Of a stretch of DNA of 60,755 bases, positions 10,722 to 55,073 are shown piece by piece; within the stretch, counting starts at the first letter, position 1; the number at the start of each line of letters is the position of its first letter. The translations under genes and the position numbers were made by a program. A model generated the notes under the pieces. That model searched no databases and was not told the DNA's origin. It worked only from the letters and a program-made list of their open reading frames with translations. The stretch spans positions 97,480 to 158,234 of the forward strand of contig CAZHXI010000001.1 of NCBI GenBank assembly GCA_964536515.1. The letters run 5' to 3'. This DNA is from an uncultured Gammaproteobacteria bacterium. Lineage in GTDB: Bacteria; Patescibacteriota; Patescibacteriia; CAYZDG01.

Positions 10722-11162
10722 TTCGTTTGTCGAAAATTCGATTGTCGAAATATCTAGGCTTATGGTTAGCGATTCGCAGGGAAAAAATTATCGAGATTTG
10801 ATTGCCTGGCAGAAGGCAATGGATTTAGTCACATTAGTTTACAAGCTGACTGAGAAATTTCCGCAGCATGAGCTGTACGGATTAACATCTCAAATTCGGC
10901 GTTGCGCAGTGTCTATTCCCTCGAATATTGCCGAGGGTAGCAGGCGAGGGACGAGAAAGGAGAATGGGCACTTCCTATATATTGCTTACGGTTCGGGAGC
11001 GGAGCTCGAAACGCAGCTCGAAATCGCTGATCGACTAGGCTACAGCAGCGACGTCACTCGTACGGAAACACGCCGAGTCCTCGATGATGTTATGCGGCTT
11101 CTCAATCGTTTGACGAAGAGCTTCACGGTATGATTCGACCAACGACCAACGACCAACGACGA
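10722..11162. mobile_element. Inverted CGAnnAA-heptad cassette, copy 2, carrying a four-helix-bundle gene
   Basis: The left arm is 10722-10750 (TTCGTTTGTCGAAAATTCGATTGTCGAAA). The right arm is 11134-11162, (CGACCAA)x3 followed by CGACGA. The enclosed ORF is visibly AT-richer than the flanks. Mobility is inference only. Confidence 0.45.
10762..11133 (+). CDS. Four-helix-bundle protein ('23S rRNA intervening sequence protein' family; Avd-like fold)
   Basis: 'DLIAWQKAMDLVTLVYKLTEKFPQHELYGLTSQIRRCAVSIPSNIAEGSRRGTRKENGHFLYIAYGSGAELETQLEIA' matches the family hallmark motifs (IPSNIAEG..., GS..ELETQL). Confidence 0.85.
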   Translation: MVSDSQGKNYRDLIAWQKAMDLVTLVYKLTEKFPQHELYGLTSQIRRCAVSIPSNIAEGSRRGTRKENGHFLYIAYGSGAELETQLEIADRLGYSSDVTRTETRRVLDDVMRLLNRLTKSFTV

Positions 11163-46512: not shown

Positions 46513-46601
46513 TTCATTGCGAGCGCAACGTAGTGGAGTGAAGCAATCACCTCAGTAAAGGGGGAGATTGCTTCATTTCGCTGCGCTCCATTCGCAATGA
46601 G
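46513..46601. repeat. CATTGCGAG...GCAATC / GATTGC...CGCAATG hairpin repeat, copy a
   Basis: TTCATTGCGAGCGCAACG..GAAGCAATC-loop-GATTGCTTCATTTCGCTGCGCTCCATTCGCAATGA. It belongs to the same family as 48166-48274, 54963-55073 and the split copy around 51309-51608. Confidence 0.7.
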
Positions 46602-46675: not shown

Positions 46676-47260
46676 ATGACCATCCTAGACATTGTCGTCG
46701 TCCTCATCCTGGCGGTGTTCTTCTTCAAGGGTTTCAGCCTGGGGCTCGTTCGGGCGGTGGGAACCTTCATCGGCCTCATCGTTGGCCTGTGGCTAGCCGG
46801 CCGCTACTACGAGGCCATGGGCGGCTGGCTGGTGGGCTGGGGCCTGCCCGAGGCGTTCAGCGCTGCGGCTGGGTACATTGCCACGTTCATTGCGGCGGTG
46901 TGGGCCGTATCGCTGCTGGTGTGGATGGCAGACCGCGTGTTCAAGTTCCTGGCCATCATCCCGGGAATGAAGCTGGCGAACAACGTGCTGGGCGGCGTGC
47001 TGCTGCTCATCGTCGGCACCATCGTCGTCGGAGTAGTGCTGTACGTGGCTGGGCAGTTCAGCGCGCCGGGCAGCGGCACCAAGCAGGCGCTGGAGAAGGC
47101 CCGCGTGGCCCCGCTGGTTACGGCGGCAGCGTGGGTGGCGGCGCCGCTCATTCCGACCGCAATCGAGCAGTACCAGCGCGTGGCGCCGGCAGCGGATGAG
47201 ATGATGCCGACGGCGGACGACATAGGGAACCTGCCCACGCCGTGGGGCGTGTCGAGGTAG
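46676..47260 (+). CDS. cvpA: CvpA-family membrane protein
   Basis: The N-terminus 'ILDIVVVLILAVFFFKGFSLGLVRAVGTFIGLIVGLWLA' and four TM helices are typical of the colicin V production protein family. Confidence 0.6.
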   Translation: MTILDIVVVLILAVFFFKGFSLGLVRAVGTFIGLIVGLWLAGRYYEAMGGWLVGWGLPEAFSAAAGYIATFIAAVWAVSLLVWMADRVFKFLAIIPGMKLANNVLGGVLLLIVGTIVVGVVLYVAGQFSAPGSGTKQALEKARVAPLVTAAAWVAAPLIPTAIEQYQRVAPAADEMMPTADDIGNLPTPWGVSR

Positions 47261-47262
47261 GG

Positions 47263-47350
47263 GTCGTTTGTCGGAAATTCGTTTGTCGAGGAGTCGAGCT
47301 ACTACTATGTCCCGCATTTTCGACCAACGAATAACGACCAACGAATAACG
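47263..47350. repeat. Inverted CGAnnAA-heptad cassette, copy 3 (no cargo)
   Basis: The left arm is 47263-47290 (GTCGTTTGTCGGAAATTCGTTTGTCGAG). The right arm is 47319-47350 (TTCGACCAA CGAATAA CGACCAA CGAATAA CG) and abuts the tatD ATG. Confidence 0.75.
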
Positions 47351-48163
47351 ATGATCTACGACAGCCACTGCCACCCCCACTTCGGGGACTACGCCGGCGA
47401 CCGCGACCAGGTGCTGGCGCGCTGCCTGCAGCACGGCATCGGCCTGGTCGCCGTGGGTACCAACCTGCGCGATAGCCAGGCTGCGGTAGATTTGGCCAGC
47501 CGCTACTCGCACGTGTGGGCCAGCGTGGGCCTGCACCCCAGCAGCGTGTACGACGAGGCGTTCAGCGTCCCCGCGTTCCGCAAGCTGTTCGGCCCGCGCG
47601 TCGTCGCGGTGGGCGAGACGGGGCTGGACTACTTCCATACCGAGGAGGCGTCCGTTACGACCGAGGAGCTGTTCGCCAAGCAGGTAGAGGTGTTCAAGGA
47701 GCACATCGCCCTGGCTCGGTCTAAGGACGTGCCGCTCATCCTGCACATCCGCAACGCGCGTCCGGTTGCCGGAGCTGACCGTCCGGCCGCATCGGCCTAC
47801 GCCGACGCGCTGTCTATTCTGCGCCGGCACCGCTGGCACCGCGGCGTGGTTCACTGCTTCGGCGGCACGCCGGAGGAGGCCAAGGCCTTTGCCGCTGCGG
47901 GGTTCTGCATCGGGTTCACCGCCAACGTTACCTACCCCAAGAACGACTGGCTGGTAGCGATTGCCGCCAGCCTGCCGCTGGACCGCATCCTAGTGGAGAC
48001 AGATAGCCCCTACCTGGCGCCGCAGGCAACACGCGGCAAGCGTAATGATCCATCGAACGTGGTTGAAGTCATAAAGAAGATCGCCGCTGCCCGCGGCATG
48101 CACTACGACGAGCTAGCCAAGGCCACGGCCGACAACGCGCGAAAATTGTTCGGCATTAACTAA
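47351..48163 (+). CDS. tatD: TatD-family metal-dependent hydrolase
   Basis: 'MIYDSHCHP', 'GETGLDY', 'LILHIRNA' and 'VETDSPYLAP'. Confidence 0.9.
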   Translation: MIYDSHCHPHFGDYAGDRDQVLARCLQHGIGLVAVGTNLRDSQAAVDLASRYSHVWASVGLHPSSVYDEAFSVPAFRKLFGPRVVAVGETGLDYFHTEEASVTTEELFAKQVEVFKEHIALARSKDVPLILHIRNARPVAGADRPAASAYADALSILRRHRWHRGVVHCFGGTPEEAKAFAAAGFCIGFTANVTYPKNDWLVAIAASLPLDRILVETDSPYLAPQATRGKRNDPSNVVEVIKKIAAARGMHYDELAKATADNARKLFGIN

Positions 48164-48165
48164 TC

Positions 48166-48274
48166 ACGTCATTGCGAGCGACCTCGGCGGAGCCGGGGGA
48201 GCGTGGCAATCGTCCCGCTCAAGCGGATTGCCACGTCATCCGCCGCTGGTGCGGCGTCCTCCTCGCAATGACGT
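48166..48274. repeat. CATTGCGAG hairpin repeat, copy b (probably also the tatD terminator)
   Basis: The outer stem ACGTCATTGCGAG/CTCGCAATGACGT is a perfect 13 bp. The inner stem CGTGGCAATC/GATTGCCACG is a perfect 10 bp. It is followed by GGTTTTTTCT. Confidence 0.8.
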
Positions 48275-49413: not shown

Positions 49414-50055
49414 TCAGGCGACGGCTTCGGCGTGCCTCGGCTGAGGCTTCGACCTGGTGGTCACCAGCTGCTGCGCGGCGGCTACACGCTCGGGCCTCGC
49501 CGGGTTGAGCTCGTTCCCCCCGCTGATGAGGCGTTCGGCTTGGGCAACCAGGTAGGCATCGAATTCGGCTCGGCTCACCGCCCCCGGGGGGCTGCCGTAC
49601 TTGGCCGGCAGGAAGCCGATGCTCCGGATCGGGTCTGCCAGGTGCTGCTGCACGAGCTCGATCCGCGCCCAGGCTTCGTTCGGCGACGCCATGGCCAGAC
49701 GCAGATGCCGCTTGACCGTGTTCTTGCTCATGCCCGCGTCTCCTTCGGTTTCGCGGAACCGCCGGCCGCAGGCGCGGATGCCGTCACCGCCGGCCAGCGT
49801 CAGCAGGACGAGGCCGATGGTCTCATCGGGTAGGCGGCTGTCCCAGTAGGCGGTGCCGTTCCGTTCACTGAATGTCTTTTCGCACGACGTGCAGGTCAGC
49901 AGGCGAATCTGGTTACGGCCGTAGCGCGTGTACAGGCGGACGTTGCTGCGGCCGGCTAGGCCGTGGTCTGGGCAGGCCGGATTCGGGCAGCTCAGTACGT
50001 CGAGGCCCCGTTCGGCTAGCCTAGCCGGAGCGGAAACAATGTGTGCATTCCTCAA
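49414..50055 (-). CDS. Orphan transposase-like Zn-ribbon + HTH protein (no catalytic domain)
   Basis: 'CPNPACPDHG...RLLTCTSCEKTFSERNGTAYW' looks like an IS1/IS1595-type zinc ribbon. 'LTLAGGDGIRACGRRF...SKNTVKRHL' looks like an HTH. No DDE or other catalytic region follows. Confidence 0.5.
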   Translation of the reverse strand: MRNAHIVSAPARLAERGLDVLSCPNPACPDHGLAGRSNVRLYTRYGRNQIRLLTCTSCEKTFSERNGTAYWDSRLPDETIGLVLLTLAGGDGIRACGRRFRETEGDAGMSKNTVKRHLRLAMASPNEAWARIELVQQHLADPIRSIGFLPAKYGSPPGAVSRAEFDAYLVAQAERLISGGNELNPARPERVAAAQQLVTTRSKPQPRHAEAVA

Positions 50056-50181
50056 GATGCTTCTCCAATTCTGTGATGGATGTATTTAAAGGGCCAATAG
50101 AAATTGCAACCGAAGTATTTAGCCAGACGAGGGGAAATTAGTCAAGGCAGGGGCGTACCCGTAAAGGAAAACCAGCCATTG

Positions 50182-50628
50182 CTACCGGAACCGCGCCGCT
50201 AGTTGGCCCCAGCGCTTACCGCGGATAACCTCGTTCGTCTCGGTTTCCTCTAGCTTGAACGCCTCGGTGAAGTAGGCGATTACCGCCTGGCTATCTAGCT
50301 GGTTCTGGCAGGTGTACACGTCTATCGAAACGAATCGGTCAGCCGGGAAGGTGTGGATGCTGATGTGGCTCTCGGCGATCATGACGAAGCCAGATAGGCC
50401 ACCCGGATCCTTGGTTTCGTTGCCGCCCACCCGTACGACGTAGGGCGTGGTGATGGTGTGCATGTGCAGCTTTGCCGGCAGCTGCTCTAGGCAACTGAAT
50501 ACGCCGTCCATGCTGTCCAGTAGACTGGCGTCGGCGCCGTAGCCATCTAGCATTAGGTGAACTCCGAAGTGGCTCAGCGACGCTGAATCATCCCGAGCAG
50601 TGCGAGGGATCCCACCCTGTTCATTCAT
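50182..50628 (-). CDS. speH: S-adenosylmethionine decarboxylase proenzyme (small prokaryotic type)
   Basis: Self-cleavage and active-site motif 'IAESHISIHTFPA...SIDVYTC'. The ATG at 50628 lies within the track ORF. Confidence 0.8.
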   Translation of the reverse strand: MNEQGGIPRTARDDSASLSHFGVHLMLDGYGADASLLDSMDGVFSCLEQLPAKLHMHTITTPYVVRVGGNETKDPGGLSGFVMIAESHISIHTFPADRFVSIDVYTCQNQLDSQAVIAYFTEAFKLEETETNEVIRGKRWGQLAARFR

Positions 50629-50733
50629 AGCAAAGGCAGTATACAGAAGCCAGCCCCAGCGGGGGAGGGGAATGTGAAACCGCCCCCTCACCTTTCGCTT
50701 TGCGAACAGGCGTGGGGGCGGTTCGGTGGTTGG

Positions 50734-51156
50734 TCAGCGTTCGTCGGTAGTGACGTACCGAGCATTGGCTGTTTTCTCTTCGTCGGCCGTTGCAGCAAAT
50801 ATGCTGCTCGCGGCGACAATGTTCTTCGTGTAACTCCGGCATTCACCGGAGACTTCGAAGAAGGTACCGTGCGGATTCTTGTACACGTTGTACCGCAGGG
50901 TACGAACATCGAATCCGCTGTAGTCGAGCAGATCGTCGTACGCTGTTCCCAGGTATTGGGCGAGATCACCGGCGACCAGCTCTTCAAATGACTGCGGCTC
51001 GGGGTAGTCGCCCCGGTGATCGGCGGCGTAGTCGGTAATGGCGGCGCGGACCGCATTCAGCTGCGCCTTAGCTACAGCTTCGTCGTGCGTGTTGCCAAGG
51101 TAGGCAACTAACCCAACGGTGCCGACGATGAAGGCGACCACGAATACCTTAAACAT
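50734..51156 (-). CDS. Small membrane-anchored hypothetical protein (GspG-like 'DYAADHRGDYPEP' motif)
   Basis: N-terminal TM 'MFKVFVVAFIVGTVGLVAYLG'. A very AT-rich upstream region lies at 51157-51256. Confidence 0.45.
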   Translation of the reverse strand: MFKVFVVAFIVGTVGLVAYLGNTHDEAVAKAQLNAVRAAITDYAADHRGDYPEPQSFEELVAGDLAQYLGTAYDDLLDYSGFDVRTLRYNVYKNPHGTFFEVSGECRSYTKNIVAASSIFAATADEEKTANARYVTTDER

Positions 51157-51256
51157 CTTTCTCTCCTTGCCCCACAGGGGCCGGTATGTGAATGAAACAG
51201 TTAACTATCTAATAATTATATGTTAGCATATTAATCAAATAATGTCAATATTAATG

Positions 51257-51680
51257 GTGTCATTGCGAGGGGGCACGTAGTCGTGCCGACGAAGCAAGCT
51301 GCATCTGCTCAGTCGTCTTGAGGTACCTGGAGATCAACCCAGAACGGATTGTGGGTACAAATCAGCTGCAACTTCTTGGATCGCGACCCGCCCTTCAGCT
51401 GCTTCTCTCTGGCGATCGCTGATGCCGGATCGTCGTACTGCTCGAAGTGAACCAGCCGTTTGACGTTGTACCTGGCGGTGAATGACGAGGGGTACGTTTT
51501 GCAAACATGGTCCCAAACCCGTTGCGCTAGCTTACTCGTAACGCCGACGTACAGGGTAGTGCCCGTATAGTTTGCCAGAATGTAGACGTAGTATTTTTTG
51601 TTTCGCATAGCACGTGGATACAGGTTGCTTCGTCCCCTTCGACTCCGCTGCGCTCCGCTCAGGATCCTCGCAAGGACACG
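51257..51680. mobile_element. Split CATTGCGAG hairpin repeat with a GIY-YIG gene in its loop
   Basis: The left half, 51257-51299, is GTGTCATTGCGAGG...GACGAAGCAAGC. The right half, 51623-51679, is GGTTGCTTCGTC...CCTCGCAAGGACAC. The halves are complementary at the outer stem (13/14) and the inner stem (10/12). Mobility is inferred. Confidence 0.5.
51309..51608 (-). CDS. GIY-YIG nuclease family protein (small, URI-domain only)
   Basis: 'KKYYVYILANYTGTTLYVGVTSKLAQRVWDH...ASAIAREKQLKGGSRSKK'. The track ORF's 53-aa N-terminal extension is read-through of the repeat arm. Confidence 0.85.
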   Translation of the reverse strand: MRNKKYYVYILANYTGTTLYVGVTSKLAQRVWDHVCKTYPSSFTARYNVKRLVHFEQYDDPASAIAREKQLKGGSRSKKLQLICTHNPFWVDLQVPQDD

Positions 51681-51773
51681 GTGTTGGGTGGCAAAGCGGC
51701 CGTCTAGTACTTGCGCCGTCGCGAGACGGCGCTGGCGCTGGGGTTCGTGGGGTACGGTCGGTAGCATTGCTAG

Positions 51774-53225
51774 ATGCGTCGGAGCGATATTGTGCAGCTC
51801 GTTTGCCTGGGCACAGGTGCGGGAATGGTCGCCGGTAGCTACGCCTCGCTCGTCGCTCTTGCGGTAGCAGCGGGGATCGTTTATCTAGGCGGCGTCACTC
51901 TGAGACGTGGCGCGTTCGGATTGATCCTTGCCATCGCCGTGCTGCTCGGTGGTTTGCGGTGGAATCACGCCACGGCTATTGGTCCAGCCGATGTGTCGCG
52001 CCTGGCGACCGGTGAGGCGCAGCTTGTATCTGGAACAGTGTCGGACGAGCCCGAGCTGCTGGGAGAACGGCAGCGGGTGGTTCTATCCGAGGTCGCGGTG
52101 GATGGTGCGTCGGTATCCGGTGGCATCCGCGCTAGCCTCAGCCGCTACCCGCAGTACAGCTACGGCCAGCAGCTGCAGCTCTCGTGCAAGCTTACGCCCG
52201 CAGAAGATTCACCGGGTGTCGCCAGCCTGCGTCGCAGGAACATTGGCGCGCTGTGCGGCAGCCCATCGGGCATCCGGATTCTTGGTGAAGCATCATCTGG
52301 CGTAAGGGGCATGCTCCTGCGTCTGCGGGCCAAGCTGCAGGCCAGCGTAAACGGCAGCCTGCCCGAGCCCCAGGCTAGCCTGCTGGCCGGCATCCTGTGG
52401 GGCGCCAGAACTGGATTGCCGCAGGGCGTGCAGGATGACTTCAAGGTTGCCGGTATGTCGCACCAGGTGGCGGTGAGCGGCTTCAATACAACCATCATTG
52501 CGACGGCGCTGGGGGCGCTTCTGTTTCGTGTAGGCTTAGCGCGGGGAGCTGTTGCTGCAACGTCTGCGTTGGGTATCGCTGCGTTCGCCGTCTTGAGCGG
52601 CGGCTCGGCTGCGGTCGTCCGCGCCGCGGCGATGTCCTCAGCTGTTCTGGCTGCGCGCACCGTCGGCCGTCCGGCAGCGGCCGGCTACGTCCTAACCGTC
52701 GCTGCGTTCGCCATGGTTCTGTGGAACCCGTGGCTCATCTACGACGTCGGCTTCCAGCTATCGCTGGCGGCCACGGCAGGCCTGGTCTACATCAGCCCGG
52801 CGCTGGAGCCCGTGGTCCGCTGGCTGCCGGAACGTTTCGCCCTGCGGGAGAATATGGCGACTACGCTCGCAGCGACGCTGGCGACTCTGCCGATTACCGT
52901 GGCTCACTTCGGGCAGTTCTCGGTCGTCGGCCTGCTGGCGAACGCCGTTACGCTGCCGCTGCTGCCGCTCACCATGGCTTTGGGAGGCATTGCCGTGGGC
53001 GCAGGGATGCTGCTGCCGTCGCTGGGCGCAGCGGCCGGCATCGTTACCTGGCTGCCGCTGACGTACCTGCTGGGCGTGGCGCACGTAGCCGCGCTCATCC
53101 CCGGCGCCGCGGTGGTTACCCAGCCGCTCGGCTGGTGGGCGGCGTTCCTGTACCTGCCGCTGGTAGCTGTAGTCTTAAGGCGACAATCCAAACTGCCATG
53201 CCCAGCCGTCGTGCCCGTGCCCTAG
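51774..53225 (+). CDS. comEC: ComEC/Rec2 DNA internalization channel, membrane (competence) domain
   Basis: Polytopic protein with 'LLAGILWGARTGLPQGVQDDFKVAGMSHQVAVSGFN', the core motif of the Competence domain. Confidence 0.85.
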   Translation: MRRSDIVQLVCLGTGAGMVAGSYASLVALAVAAGIVYLGGVTLRRGAFGLILAIAVLLGGLRWNHATAIGPADVSRLATGEAQLVSGTVSDEPELLGERQRVVLSEVAVDGASVSGGIRASLSRYPQYSYGQQLQLSCKLTPAEDSPGVASLRRRNIGALCGSPSGIRILGEASSGVRGMLLRLRAKLQASVNGSLPEPQASLLAGILWGARTGLPQGVQDDFKVAGMSHQVAVSGFNTTIIATALGALLFRVGLARGAVAATSALGIAAFAVLSGGSAAVVRAAAMSSAVLAARTVGRPAAAGYVLTVAAFAMVLWNPWLIYDVGFQLSLAATAGLVYISPALEPVVRWLPERFALRENMATTLAATLATLPITVAHFGQFSVVGLLANAVTLPLLPLTMALGGIAVGAGMLLPSLGAAAGIVTWLPLTYLLGVAHVAALIPGAAVVTQPLGWWAAFLYLPLVAVVLRRQSKLPCPAVVPVP

Positions 53226-54046
53226 TCCTCTCCGCAGTCGTTTTGCTGTACGCCGCTGCCGTCGTCTGGTACCTAGCCAGCCGGCCAGCGCTGCTGACCG
53301 TGGTCGTGTGCGACGTGGGCCAGGGCGACGCCATCCTCATCCGAGCTCCATCCGGCCACGACATTCTGGTAGACGGCGGCAGAACAGATGCAGCTGTCCT
53401 GGCTTGCCTGGGCCGCCACCTGCCGCCGTGGGACAGGACATTGGAGCTAGTCATCCTCTCGCACGGCGACGCAGACCACGTCGGCGGGCTGCCGCAGGTG
53501 GCGGCCCGGTACCGCATCTCGCAGGCAATTTTCAGCGGCGTGGAATCCGAGTCGCAGGTATACCGTGCCTGGGTCGGTAGCCTGCGGCAGCAGGGGGTTA
53601 CGCAGCGTGAGGTTGCGGCGGGGGACACGTTCGATCTCGGCGACGGCGTCCGTGCCGACGTCGTATGGCCAGGGCCGGGCGCAGATCGAACGAACACGAA
53701 TGAATCCAGCGTCGTCATCCGCCTGTCGTACGCCAGCAGCAGCCTGCTCCTAACCGGCGATATCGCCGCGGAGACGGAGCGGGCAATCGTCGCCAGCGGC
53801 GCCGATGTGTCCGCGCAGCTGCTGAAGGTGGCTCACCACGGCAGCCGCTACTCTTCCGACGCCTCCTTCTTAGCCGCGGTGGGGCCAGACGTCGCCCTCA
53901 TTTCGGTGGGAGCCGAGAACAGCTACGGGCACCCGGGGCAGGAGGCGCTCGATCGTCTGATTGCCGCTGGCGCATCCGTCTACCGCACCGACCAGCAGGG
54001 TGACATCGTCTGGCGGACGGACGGCCTCCACTGGAGCTTGAAGTAG
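53198..54046 (+). CDS. ComEC C-terminal metallo-beta-lactamase domain, encoded as a separate overlapping ORF
   Basis: 'VVVCDVGQGDAILIRAPSGHDILVDGG', 'ILSHGDADHVGGL' and 'KVAHHGS'. The ATG at 53198 lies in another frame and overlaps the comEC end by 28 nt. Confidence 0.8.
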   Translation: MPSRRARALVLSAVVLLYAAAVVWYLASRPALLTVVVCDVGQGDAILIRAPSGHDILVDGGRTDAAVLACLGRHLPPWDRTLELVILSHGDADHVGGLPQVAARYRISQAIFSGVESESQVYRAWVGSLRQQGVTQREVAAGDTFDLGDGVRADVVWPGPGADRTNTNESSVVIRLSYASSSLLLTGDIAAETERAIVASGADVSAQLLKVAHHGSRYSSDASFLAAVGPDVALISVGAENSYGHPGQEALDRLIAAGASVYRTDQQGDIVWRTDGLHWSLK

Positions 54047-54962: not shown

Positions 54963-55073
54963 GCGTGTCTTTGCGAGCCCCGAGACCACGAGGGGCGTGG
55001 CAACCTATAGCCTACGACTCGGCCGTAGGTTGCTTCGTCGTCCACCTACGGTGCCCGCCTCGCAAGGACACGC
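54963..55073. repeat. CATTGCGAG-family hairpin repeat, copy d
   Basis: GCGTGTCTTTGCGAG...GGCAACC...GGTTGCTTCGTCG...CTCGCAAGGACACGC, with 14/15 complementarity in the outer stem. Confidence 0.7.

Follow-up and report, generated by a model that had tools for sequence, protein, structure and literature searches.

A GIY-YIG nuclease gene, likely of the Ssn type, between inverted copies of its probable cognate hairpin motif, with gene-less dimers of the same unit nearby

We analysed a 60,755-nt stretch of DNA from an uncultured bacterium (referred to below as the window; all positions are those of the whole window), in which a 99-aa GIY-YIG nuclease is encoded between the two halves of a split hairpin. 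Each half is a copy of one repeat unit, and unit, gene and inverted unit together form a cassette with the following parts.

51309..51608, minus strand: ssn-like gene for a 99-aa single-domain GIY-YIG nuclease, stop codon included (Pfam PF01541, E 6e-13; AlphaFold2 model; homology to Neisseria SsnA)
51623..51677, minus strand: repeat unit upstream of the nuclease gene (covariance-model match, 32.1 bits, E 1e-4)
51259..51299, plus strand: repeat unit downstream of the nuclease gene (covariance-model match, 33.3 bits)
51257..51679, no strand: whole cassette of unit, gene and inverted unit (comparison of filled with empty sites, four-way and pairwise flank alignments, intergenic sequence of the relative L091)

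The upstream unit reads GTCCTTGCGAGG...GACGAAGCAACC towards the nuclease gene, and the downstream unit, on the strand opposite to the gene, reads GTCATTGCGAGG-GGCACGTAGTCGTGCC-GACGAAGCAAGC; both have their GTC tag at the distal end. In its minimum-free-energy DNA fold the downstream unit forms a TTGC/GCAA closing stem with an inner hairpin. The split hairpin around the gene is a real feature. Its outer stem, for which the original prediction had given 13 of 14 paired positions, was borne out (51257-51270 with 51666-51679), and the inner stem exists as well, with 11 rather than the predicted 10 pairs over the same 12 nt. This inner stem extends to 16 of 18 positions (51288-51305 with 51617-51634) and ends 3 nt from the stop codon and 8 nt from the start codon of the nuclease gene. 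The halves do flank a 99-aa GIY-YIG open reading frame (ORF) on the minus strand, at distances of 9 and 14 nt where 8 and 15 had been reported. When joined, they fold like three intact, gene-less hairpins, which lie in the window where the original prediction had placed them.

46513..46601: gene-less head-out pair (units 46513-46548, plus strand, and 46566-46601, minus strand), 10 nt past the metG stop codon (covariance model 29.3 and 28.0 bits; DNA fold z -6.35)
48166..48274: gene-less head-out pair (units 48168-48211, plus strand, and 48226-48272, minus strand), 3 nt past the tatD stop codon (covariance model 33.6 and 33.9 bits; DNA fold z -7.7)
54963..55073: gene-less head-out pair (units 54967-55005, plus strand, and 55028-55069, minus strand), downstream of ndk (covariance model 31.9 and 34.8 bits)

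We modelled the covariance of the repeat unit on 50 examples, 8 of them in the window and 42 in other genomes; in the window the model recovered exactly eight units, arranged as four inverted pairs and scoring 28-35 bits, with the next best match at 10.8 bits. The core GTCATTGCGAG, allowing at most one mismatch, occurs seven times against 0.94 expected, a count reached by none of 100 shuffles, and these matches fall in the nuclease cassette and the three gene-less hairpins. The unit reads (C/T)GTC-ATTGC-GAG, a variable hairpin and CG(A/T)(A/G)-GCAAT-C, and spans 36-55 nt in the window. After the (C/T)GTC tag, a closing stem of 5 bp (ATTGC/GCAAT) thus encloses an internal loop that is conserved and rich in purines (GAG / CGAA) and, at the apex, a hairpin that varies. 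Two of the eight tags are CGTC, four are TGTC and two are degenerate (ATTC and ACTC); the degenerate ones belong to the pair behind metG (TTC, CTC), and the best-preserved copy is the pair behind tatD, which has CGTC tags and is followed by a T-run. All four pairs are head-out, with their GTC tags pointing outwards. Spacers of the gene-less pairs measure 14-22 nt, and in the cassette the nuclease gene takes the position of the spacer.

Because each hairpin is an inverted pair of one unit, the outer and inner stems first described represent the pairing of unit 1 with unit 2. Two inverted units can also pair together into one long hairpin, which is the form that had been recognized originally. 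Folded as single-stranded DNA (ssDNA), the four elements reach z-scores of -4.1 to -7.7, and none of 200 shuffles was as stable.

The two units that flank the nuclease gene differ in their interior. That of the upstream unit (51636-51666, ATCCTGAGCGGAGCGCAGCGGAGTCGAAGGG) resembles the body of an ATCCT-class unit, and in the related contigs L081 and L082 a short GC hairpin replaces it while the unit ends are conserved. Derived ends of the form GTCC...GCAACC are common to this unit and to the unit at 55028-55069. To judge from these sequences, unit interiors are replaced while the unit ends stay fixed.

Rfam contained no family for the repeats (one spurious mir-1010 match, E 0.14), and a literature search for the repeat letters returned primer coincidences only. 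A generic scan of the window for GTC plus a 5-mer followed by its complement plus C gave 63 matches against 62 in shuffles, which is uninformative because this pattern carries neither the AT constraint nor the gene context. A parallel once drawn with a four-helix-bundle cassette at 10722-11162 did not hold, since the repeat there is a different one (CGAnnAA heptads) and not of the same family.

A published system offers a close precedent for a nuclease gene between hairpins. Chenal et al. (2025, Nat Commun; PMC11893778) described SsnA, a GIY-YIG protein of N. meningitidis with a single domain and 94 aa (cd10448), which binds and cuts ssDNA beside the NTS hairpin CGTCATTCCCGCGMAVGCGGGAATCYRG. 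Ssn enzymes are single-domain GIY-YIG proteins of ~95 aa (CDD cd10448) that cut ssDNA site-specifically beside a GTC-tagged hairpin. One mark of membership in the family is cleavage next to the cognate hairpin of ssDNA, and not of double-stranded DNA or RNA. The three bases 5' of the NTS palindrome (GTC) control SsnA cleavage, and binding and cleavage have been demonstrated directly for four Ssn homologues. The NTS-ssnA-NTS layout was reported for Neisseria and thousands of other bacteria; in the accompanying survey, SRM repeats lay near 71% of the homologous genes and on both sides in 42%. The authors noted that this layout resembles an insertion sequence and raised, without testing it, the question of its mobility (PMC11893778).

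The sole Pfam match of the 99-aa ORF is PF01541 (GIY-YIG, E 6e-13, residues 5-80). Its AlphaFold2 model (mean confidence, pLDDT, 92.5) is closest in fold to UPF0213/BH0048, Slx1 and the N-terminal GIY-YIG domain of UvrC, and its catalytic residues are conserved: among 34 homologues, Y9, Y20, R30, H34, E68 and N87 either never vary or reach at least 90% conservation. For comparison with the Ssn family, we used a gonococcal orthologue in place of N. meningitidis SsnA: a 94-aa N. gonorrhoeae ORF (L094 613-900), found by tblastn at E 2e-14 in a 7.3-Gb database, which we take to be the SsnA orthologue because seven exact matches to the NTS consensus surround it. Pairwise blastp gave 48.9% identity over 94 aa at E 2e-23, below the BLAST E-value of 1e-10 by which homologues are recognized in PMC11893778. 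The record in question, NZ_CP119140.1 (2.17 Mb), is filed as a plasmid, is evidently a chromosome, and leaves the ssnA orthologue unannotated. The window protein is also 54% identical to a Sphingomonas protein whose gene has GTCATTCCCGCGAAGGCGGGAATC on both flanks. A sequence search of the PDB returned UPF0213 proteins only and no Ssn structure, and NCBIfam has no specific model for the protein. Metatranscriptome contigs identical to the window span the nuclease gene and both units, which is weak evidence, DNA carry-over being possible.

To see how general the association of gene and repeat is, we drew on a scan of one genome per species, which yielded 578 confirmed relatives; the locus counts below use the best 80, with 46-61% identity. 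These 80 loci come from Bacteroidota, several proteobacterial classes, Acidobacteriota, Verrucomicrobiota, Chloroflexota, Cyanobacteria, Patescibacteria, Spirochaetota, Bacillota and Actinomycetota. At 56 of the 78 loci with both flanks, the two sides of the gene formed an inverted repeat of 11 nt or more, compared with 23 of 72 displaced controls (p 1.5e-6). Under a strict definition, an inward-facing GTC-tagged unit lay upstream at 37 loci, downstream at 41 and on both sides at 28 of 80, so that the link first proposed between nuclease gene and hairpin family proved both real and general. At two loci (L057 and L003) the units abut the ORF at 1-11 nt. In a Dehalococcoidia metagenome-assembled genome (L016, 2300-2990) the repeat takes the form of arrays instead of dimers: GTCATTGCGAG stands in tandem with a 25-nt period; six copies precede the GIY-YIG gene, and five follow it at intervals of 18-25 nt.

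The closing stem covaries, according to a test that does not presuppose pairing and is therefore non-circular. Among inward-facing GTCATNNN sites, 90 of 142 have their own complement plus C within 66 nt; for classes other than ATTGC, the complement was found at 36 of 78 sites compared with 1.2% when 5-mers were swapped between sites. Closing-stem classes include ATTCC/GGAAT (the NTS type), ATCCT/AGGAT, ATCCC/GGGAT, ATTCT/AGAAT, ATTAC/GTAAT and ATGTT/AACAT. Mapped onto the protein tree, the repeat class changes 29 times against a shuffled mean of 40.6, and none of 200 shuffles was as low; host relatedness contributes to this agreement. The protein tree itself cuts across phyla, with, for example, Acinetobacter beside a cyanobacterium.

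We therefore consider it likely that the ORF encodes an Ssn-type nuclease sitting between two inward-facing copies of its probable cognate motif, and that the gene-less hairpins are head-out dimers of the same unit. The identity of the cassette parts, as read from sequence, is well supported. By homology, the nuclease would bind the unit hairpin on DNA made single-stranded by replication, by recombination or in the uptake of transforming DNA, and its nick would fall a few nucleotides 5' of the GTC tag. If it binds and nicks there, the dispersed dimers would be its genomic target sites; where they directly follow a stop codon, they probably double as terminators or as structures at mRNA ends.

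Several observations weigh against this interpretation. The published SRM search pattern, HGTCWYN(0-2)YYVSBRHN(0-5)WNVSBRGN(0-2)RNCYNB (PMC11893778), has one chance match in the window and none at the repeats; it fits none of the 29 loci of the ATTGC class and 3 of the whole set of 80. At 36-55 nt the window units are longer than the published elements, and their closing stem has only 4-5 bp. Single units fold no better than shuffles (z +1 to -2.5), and the inter-unit hairpin dominates, unlike the compact 8-9-bp NTS hairpin. Finally, all eight units lie within 46.5-55.1 kb of the window and none in its first 46 kb. Since the SRM expression is a search pattern and not a definition, the repeat is best treated as a class outside it. 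The ATTGC class makes up 29 of the 50 loci with a strict flanking unit in the sample of 80, and a pattern that misses what seems to be the commonest class near close homologues implies that Ssn-repeat associations are probably under-counted. The weakness of single units next to the dominant inter-unit hairpin suggests that the substrate could be the dimer.

Comparison with relatives, which rests on metagenomic contigs, indicates how the cassette behaves over time. Metagenomes from wastewater, sludge and groundwater contain the organism. By its TatD protein, the closest named relatives share ~42% identity and include Patescibacteria besides other groups, a weak basis for placing it. X2 (a 97% relative), L081 and L082 carry the cassette. 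Relative to L082, the nuclease gene has a synonymous divergence (dS) of 0.92, similar to the 0.82 of a neighbouring gene, and a ratio of nonsynonymous to synonymous divergence (dN/dS) of 0.07, which argues that it has long been at this site under purifying selection. Between the window and L081, identity is 98% for the cassette and 96-99% over cassette plus adjoining promoter tract (51157-51634), with a dS of 0.06, while the gene for AdoMet decarboxylase (AdoMetDC), 700 nt away, has a dS of 0.39 (p 1.5e-4 against the cassette) and the pilin-like gene in between is non-homologous; this points to a recent lateral exchange of the tract with the L081 lineage. In L083 and L091, which are syntenic and have the same flanks, the whole cassette is absent, both hairpin halves included. 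Conserved on the two sides of the empty site are the TTGACA promoter of the pilin-like gene and a GCCGTCG-N-CGACGGC hairpin before comEC. Two further features adjoin the cassette.

51680..51713, no strand: ~34 nt adjoining the cassette, present only in filled alleles (window and L081) according to the alignments and likewise missing from L083 and L091
51220..51248, minus strand: near-consensus sigma-70-like promoter TTGACA-17-TAACAT (with TG) of the neighbouring pilin-like gene, kept in empty-site relatives

With 8 nt between this promoter and the cassette, the latter lies immediately upstream of the -35 box of the pilin-like gene. Junctions of the cassette and of the dimers, compared between filled and empty alleles, revealed no target-site duplication. 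Contigs from eight runs held no joint that skips the cassette, which is weak evidence because these are contigs.

On its other side the cassette lies directly upstream of comEC (51774-54046) and is divergent from it. ComEC is the DNA-uptake channel, and Neisseria SsnA acts on incoming transforming ssDNA, which makes the adjacency suggestive; it is missing in L083 and L091 and may be chance.

The gene-less pairs turn over as well. The pair behind metG is present in a ~89% relative and absent in L091, where a 39-nt spacer stands, and at the same site L089 (3230-3320; the same in L090) carries a heterodimer of an ATCCT-class and an ATTCC-class unit. This heterodimer consists of GTCATCCTGAAC...AGGATC and, inverted, GTCATTCCGGGC...GGAATC; it could be an independent insertion at the same spot or a replacement in place. 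Instead of the pair behind tatD, X2, X3, X10 and L089 have 185 unrelated nt, and the pair is absent in L091 and L092. The pair behind ndk, on the other hand, is frozen in sequence: in L083 all 81 of its 81 unit bases are identical and all five differences fall in the spacer, at an ndk dS of 0.51, an identity with a probability of about 1e-9 to 1e-16 under neutrality. Two of the three gene-less pairs are therefore polymorphic, and the insertion polymorphism that the original prediction had asked for exists at these sites as well as at the cassette. In sum, the nuclease is a long-resident, selected, single-copy gene, while cassette and dimers are gained, lost and replaced between related genomes.

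Much of this could also be read as a self-mobilizing mini-transposon, in which the GIY-YIG nuclease cuts its own hairpin ends and the gene-less dimers spread in trans as REPINs do by RAYTs. This account agrees with ours on the identity of the parts and differs in claiming that the nuclease is the mobilizing enzyme. It would explain why the whole cassette with its hairpin halves is a presence/absence unit at an orthologous site, the recent lateral exchange with L081, the dimers behind metG and tatD that are absent or swapped for other classes in relatives, a protein tree that crosses phyla and the derived ends common to units of different dimers (51623-51677, 55028-55069). The insertion-sequence-like layout remarked on in the Ssn paper (PMC11893778) and the lack of a known transposase for repetitive extragenic palindromes (REPs) with a CGTC tag (PMC3733652) point the same way. 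Against it stand the missing target-site duplications in every filled-versus-empty comparison, the single copy of the gene in the 60-kb window and its long vertical residence under purifying selection. The L081 high-identity tract includes the promoter region of the neighbouring gene, so that ordinary homologous recombination could explain the exchange. Homologues at E 1e-10 or better occur in 30 plasmid records and in no phage record.

The chemistry argues in the same direction. GIY-YIG enzymes are hydrolytic nucleases that form no covalent intermediate, and any strand transfer would depend on functions of the host. The only protein of the cassette is the 99-aa nuclease, which is neither a Y1 (HUH) transposase nor a member of another recognized transposase class, and the known biochemistry of the Ssn family is site-specific ssDNA cleavage, not strand transfer. 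We thus regard the transposon account as rather unlikely and mobilization by the nuclease as unproven. The autonomous element originally envisaged draws real support from the cassette-level indel, the lateral exchange and the dimer turnover, and lacks both target-site duplications and a plausible strand-transfer chemistry. Nor is there any sign that the gene-less copies, originally proposed as its derivatives, stem from the cassette: their spacers share nothing with its sub-terminal DNA and are unrelated to its sequence, which speaks against simple deletion products of the kind called miniature inverted-repeat transposable elements (MITEs). In its behaviour the nuclease gene resembles a resident, RAYT-like single-copy gene more than an active transposon.

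Homing endonucleases of the GIY-YIG type are well known, both free-standing and intron-encoded (I-TevI type), and the nuclease gene takes the position of a dimer spacer almost exactly (3 nt to the stop codon, 8 nt to the start codon), as it might had it invaded the loop of a resident dimer like a free-standing homing endonuclease gene. This second option of the original prediction is very improbable. The syntenic empty sites in L083 and L091 carry no hairpin, so the locus lends no support to homing into an existing one; the protein consists of its 99-aa catalytic core and lacks a further domain for binding DNA; and the filled allele keeps both recognition units intact and would not be immune to cutting. 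Mere coincidence, with the hairpins as ordinary terminators or REP-like RNA structures that have no functional tie to the nuclease gene, would suit the weak hairpins of individual units and the three gene-less copies just after stop codons (one with a T-run), and is the least credible account, given an association seen again in dozens of unrelated genomes, where repeats of matching class lie on either side of the gene, a repeat class that tracks the protein tree and the direct binding and cleavage published for four Ssn homologues (PMC11893778).

The surroundings of the cassette are variable in their own right. The pilin-like gene beside it exists as two non-homologous alleles at the same position (window 50734-51156, L081 641-1057, L083 4004-4426, L082 487-909), and homology breaks off precisely at the start codon; one type is found in the window and in L082, the other in L081 and L083, and the L091 gene may be of the latter type, as its start and upstream region suggest. 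The interval from rmuC to the pilin-like gene is a variable island (window 49414-50700, L083 289-3778, L091 7938-9364), which holds a transposase-like gene and the AdoMet decarboxylase gene in the window and a gene for a 921-aa GH172 protein in L083. Between cvpA and tatD, a heptad-repeat cassette (47246-47366) is polymorphic too: contigs of X2, X3 and X10 have 22 nt (CTGCCCAATGATCTTCGATTCG) in place of 119 nt.

Set against known systems, the nuclease-between-hairpins layout appears to be the already known NTS-ssnA-NTS design, and the gene-less pairs appear to be head-head (HH) dimers of CGTC-tagged REPs, two links that the original prediction had not made. With the Ssn/NTS system the locus shares a single-domain GIY-YIG protein of ~95-100 aa, 49% identical to the gonococcal SsnA orthologue, oriented GTC-tagged hairpin repeats on both gene flanks with the tag 5' of the palindrome, and the same repeats dispersed and clustered in intergenic DNA, with repeat variants that co-vary with protein clades. 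It differs in its repeat class, GTC-ATTGC-GAG...CGAA-GCAAT-C, which measures 24-55 nt, has an internal loop and a variable apical hairpin and falls outside the published SRM pattern. In addition, the units here are strictly head-out pairs that fold as one long hairpin, and the host appears to be an uncultured lineage of wastewater and groundwater.

The likeness to I-TevI-type homing endonucleases is limited to the GIY-YIG catalytic core and a tie to mobile DNA. The window protein has no C-terminal DNA-binding domain, its context is neither an intron nor a phage, there are no phage matches, and the recognition motifs lie inside the element instead of in the empty allele.

CGTC-tagged REPs, described by Di Nocera, De Gregorio and Rocco (BMC Genomics 2013; PMC3733652), are recognized by an unpaired terminal CGTC, TGTC or CCTC and include Neisseria dRS3 and Rickettsia RPE-4/-6. 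They occur mostly as HH dimers with their tags outside, downstream of genes, fold as two hairpins or one large one and come without a dedicated transposase (PMC3733652). The units of the window share the terminal CGTC/TGTC tag, a stem starting with A-T and T-A and a short tail beginning with C. HH dimers likewise predominate, with spacers of 14-22 nt and sites downstream of coding regions (here metG, tatD and ndk), and a dimer can likewise form either two hairpins or a single large stem-loop. The described REP stems, however, are perfect over 8-9 bp with loops of 4-5 nt, whereas the closing stem here has 4-5 bp, an internal loop and a variable extension; and where PMC3733652 names no dedicated enzyme, an Ssn-type gene lies inside one dimer here.

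This last difference invites a tentative proposal, possible although we would not expect it to hold: Ssn-type GIY-YIG nucleases might be the long-missing dedicated enzyme of the CGTC-tagged REPs, in a REPIN/RAYT-like replicative system with a hydrolytic nuclease in place of the Y1 transposase. With the same reserve, the unit-gene-unit cassette might then move as a block, as hinted by its absence from L083 and L091 and by its recent lateral exchange with the lineage of L081. Gene-less doublets might be copied, give way to other classes at the same site or be held constant by selection, and the ATTGC class might, just as tentatively, be the commonest and still undescribed branch (29 of 50 loci). 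Taken alone, the locus adds another Ssn/SRM pair, from an uncultured wastewater or groundwater bacterium, with a repeat class that the published SRM search pattern does not capture. Its value lies in the relatives, which provide a precise empty site of the cassette, synonymous-site discordance, doublet turnover and one doublet that is invariant across a dS of ~0.5. This evidence bears on the mobility of NTS-ssnA-NTS cassettes (PMC11893778) and on what spreads CGTC-tagged REPs (PMC3733652).

The overall picture appears most to resemble REPIN/RAYT systems (Bertels and Rainey 2011, PMC3116915; Nunvar et al. 2010, PMC2817692), with an enzyme of a different class. Both pair a short palindromic unit, scattered across intergenic DNA as inverted doublets, with an enzyme gene that exists in one copy, is inherited vertically and has such units on its flanks, and both persist for long while individual doublets turn over. 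They part ways in the tag, which is GTAG there and (C)GTC here, and in the enzyme: RAYTs are Y1 HUH transposases that act through a covalent intermediate, whereas the enzyme at this locus is a hydrolytic nuclease of the GIY-YIG type.

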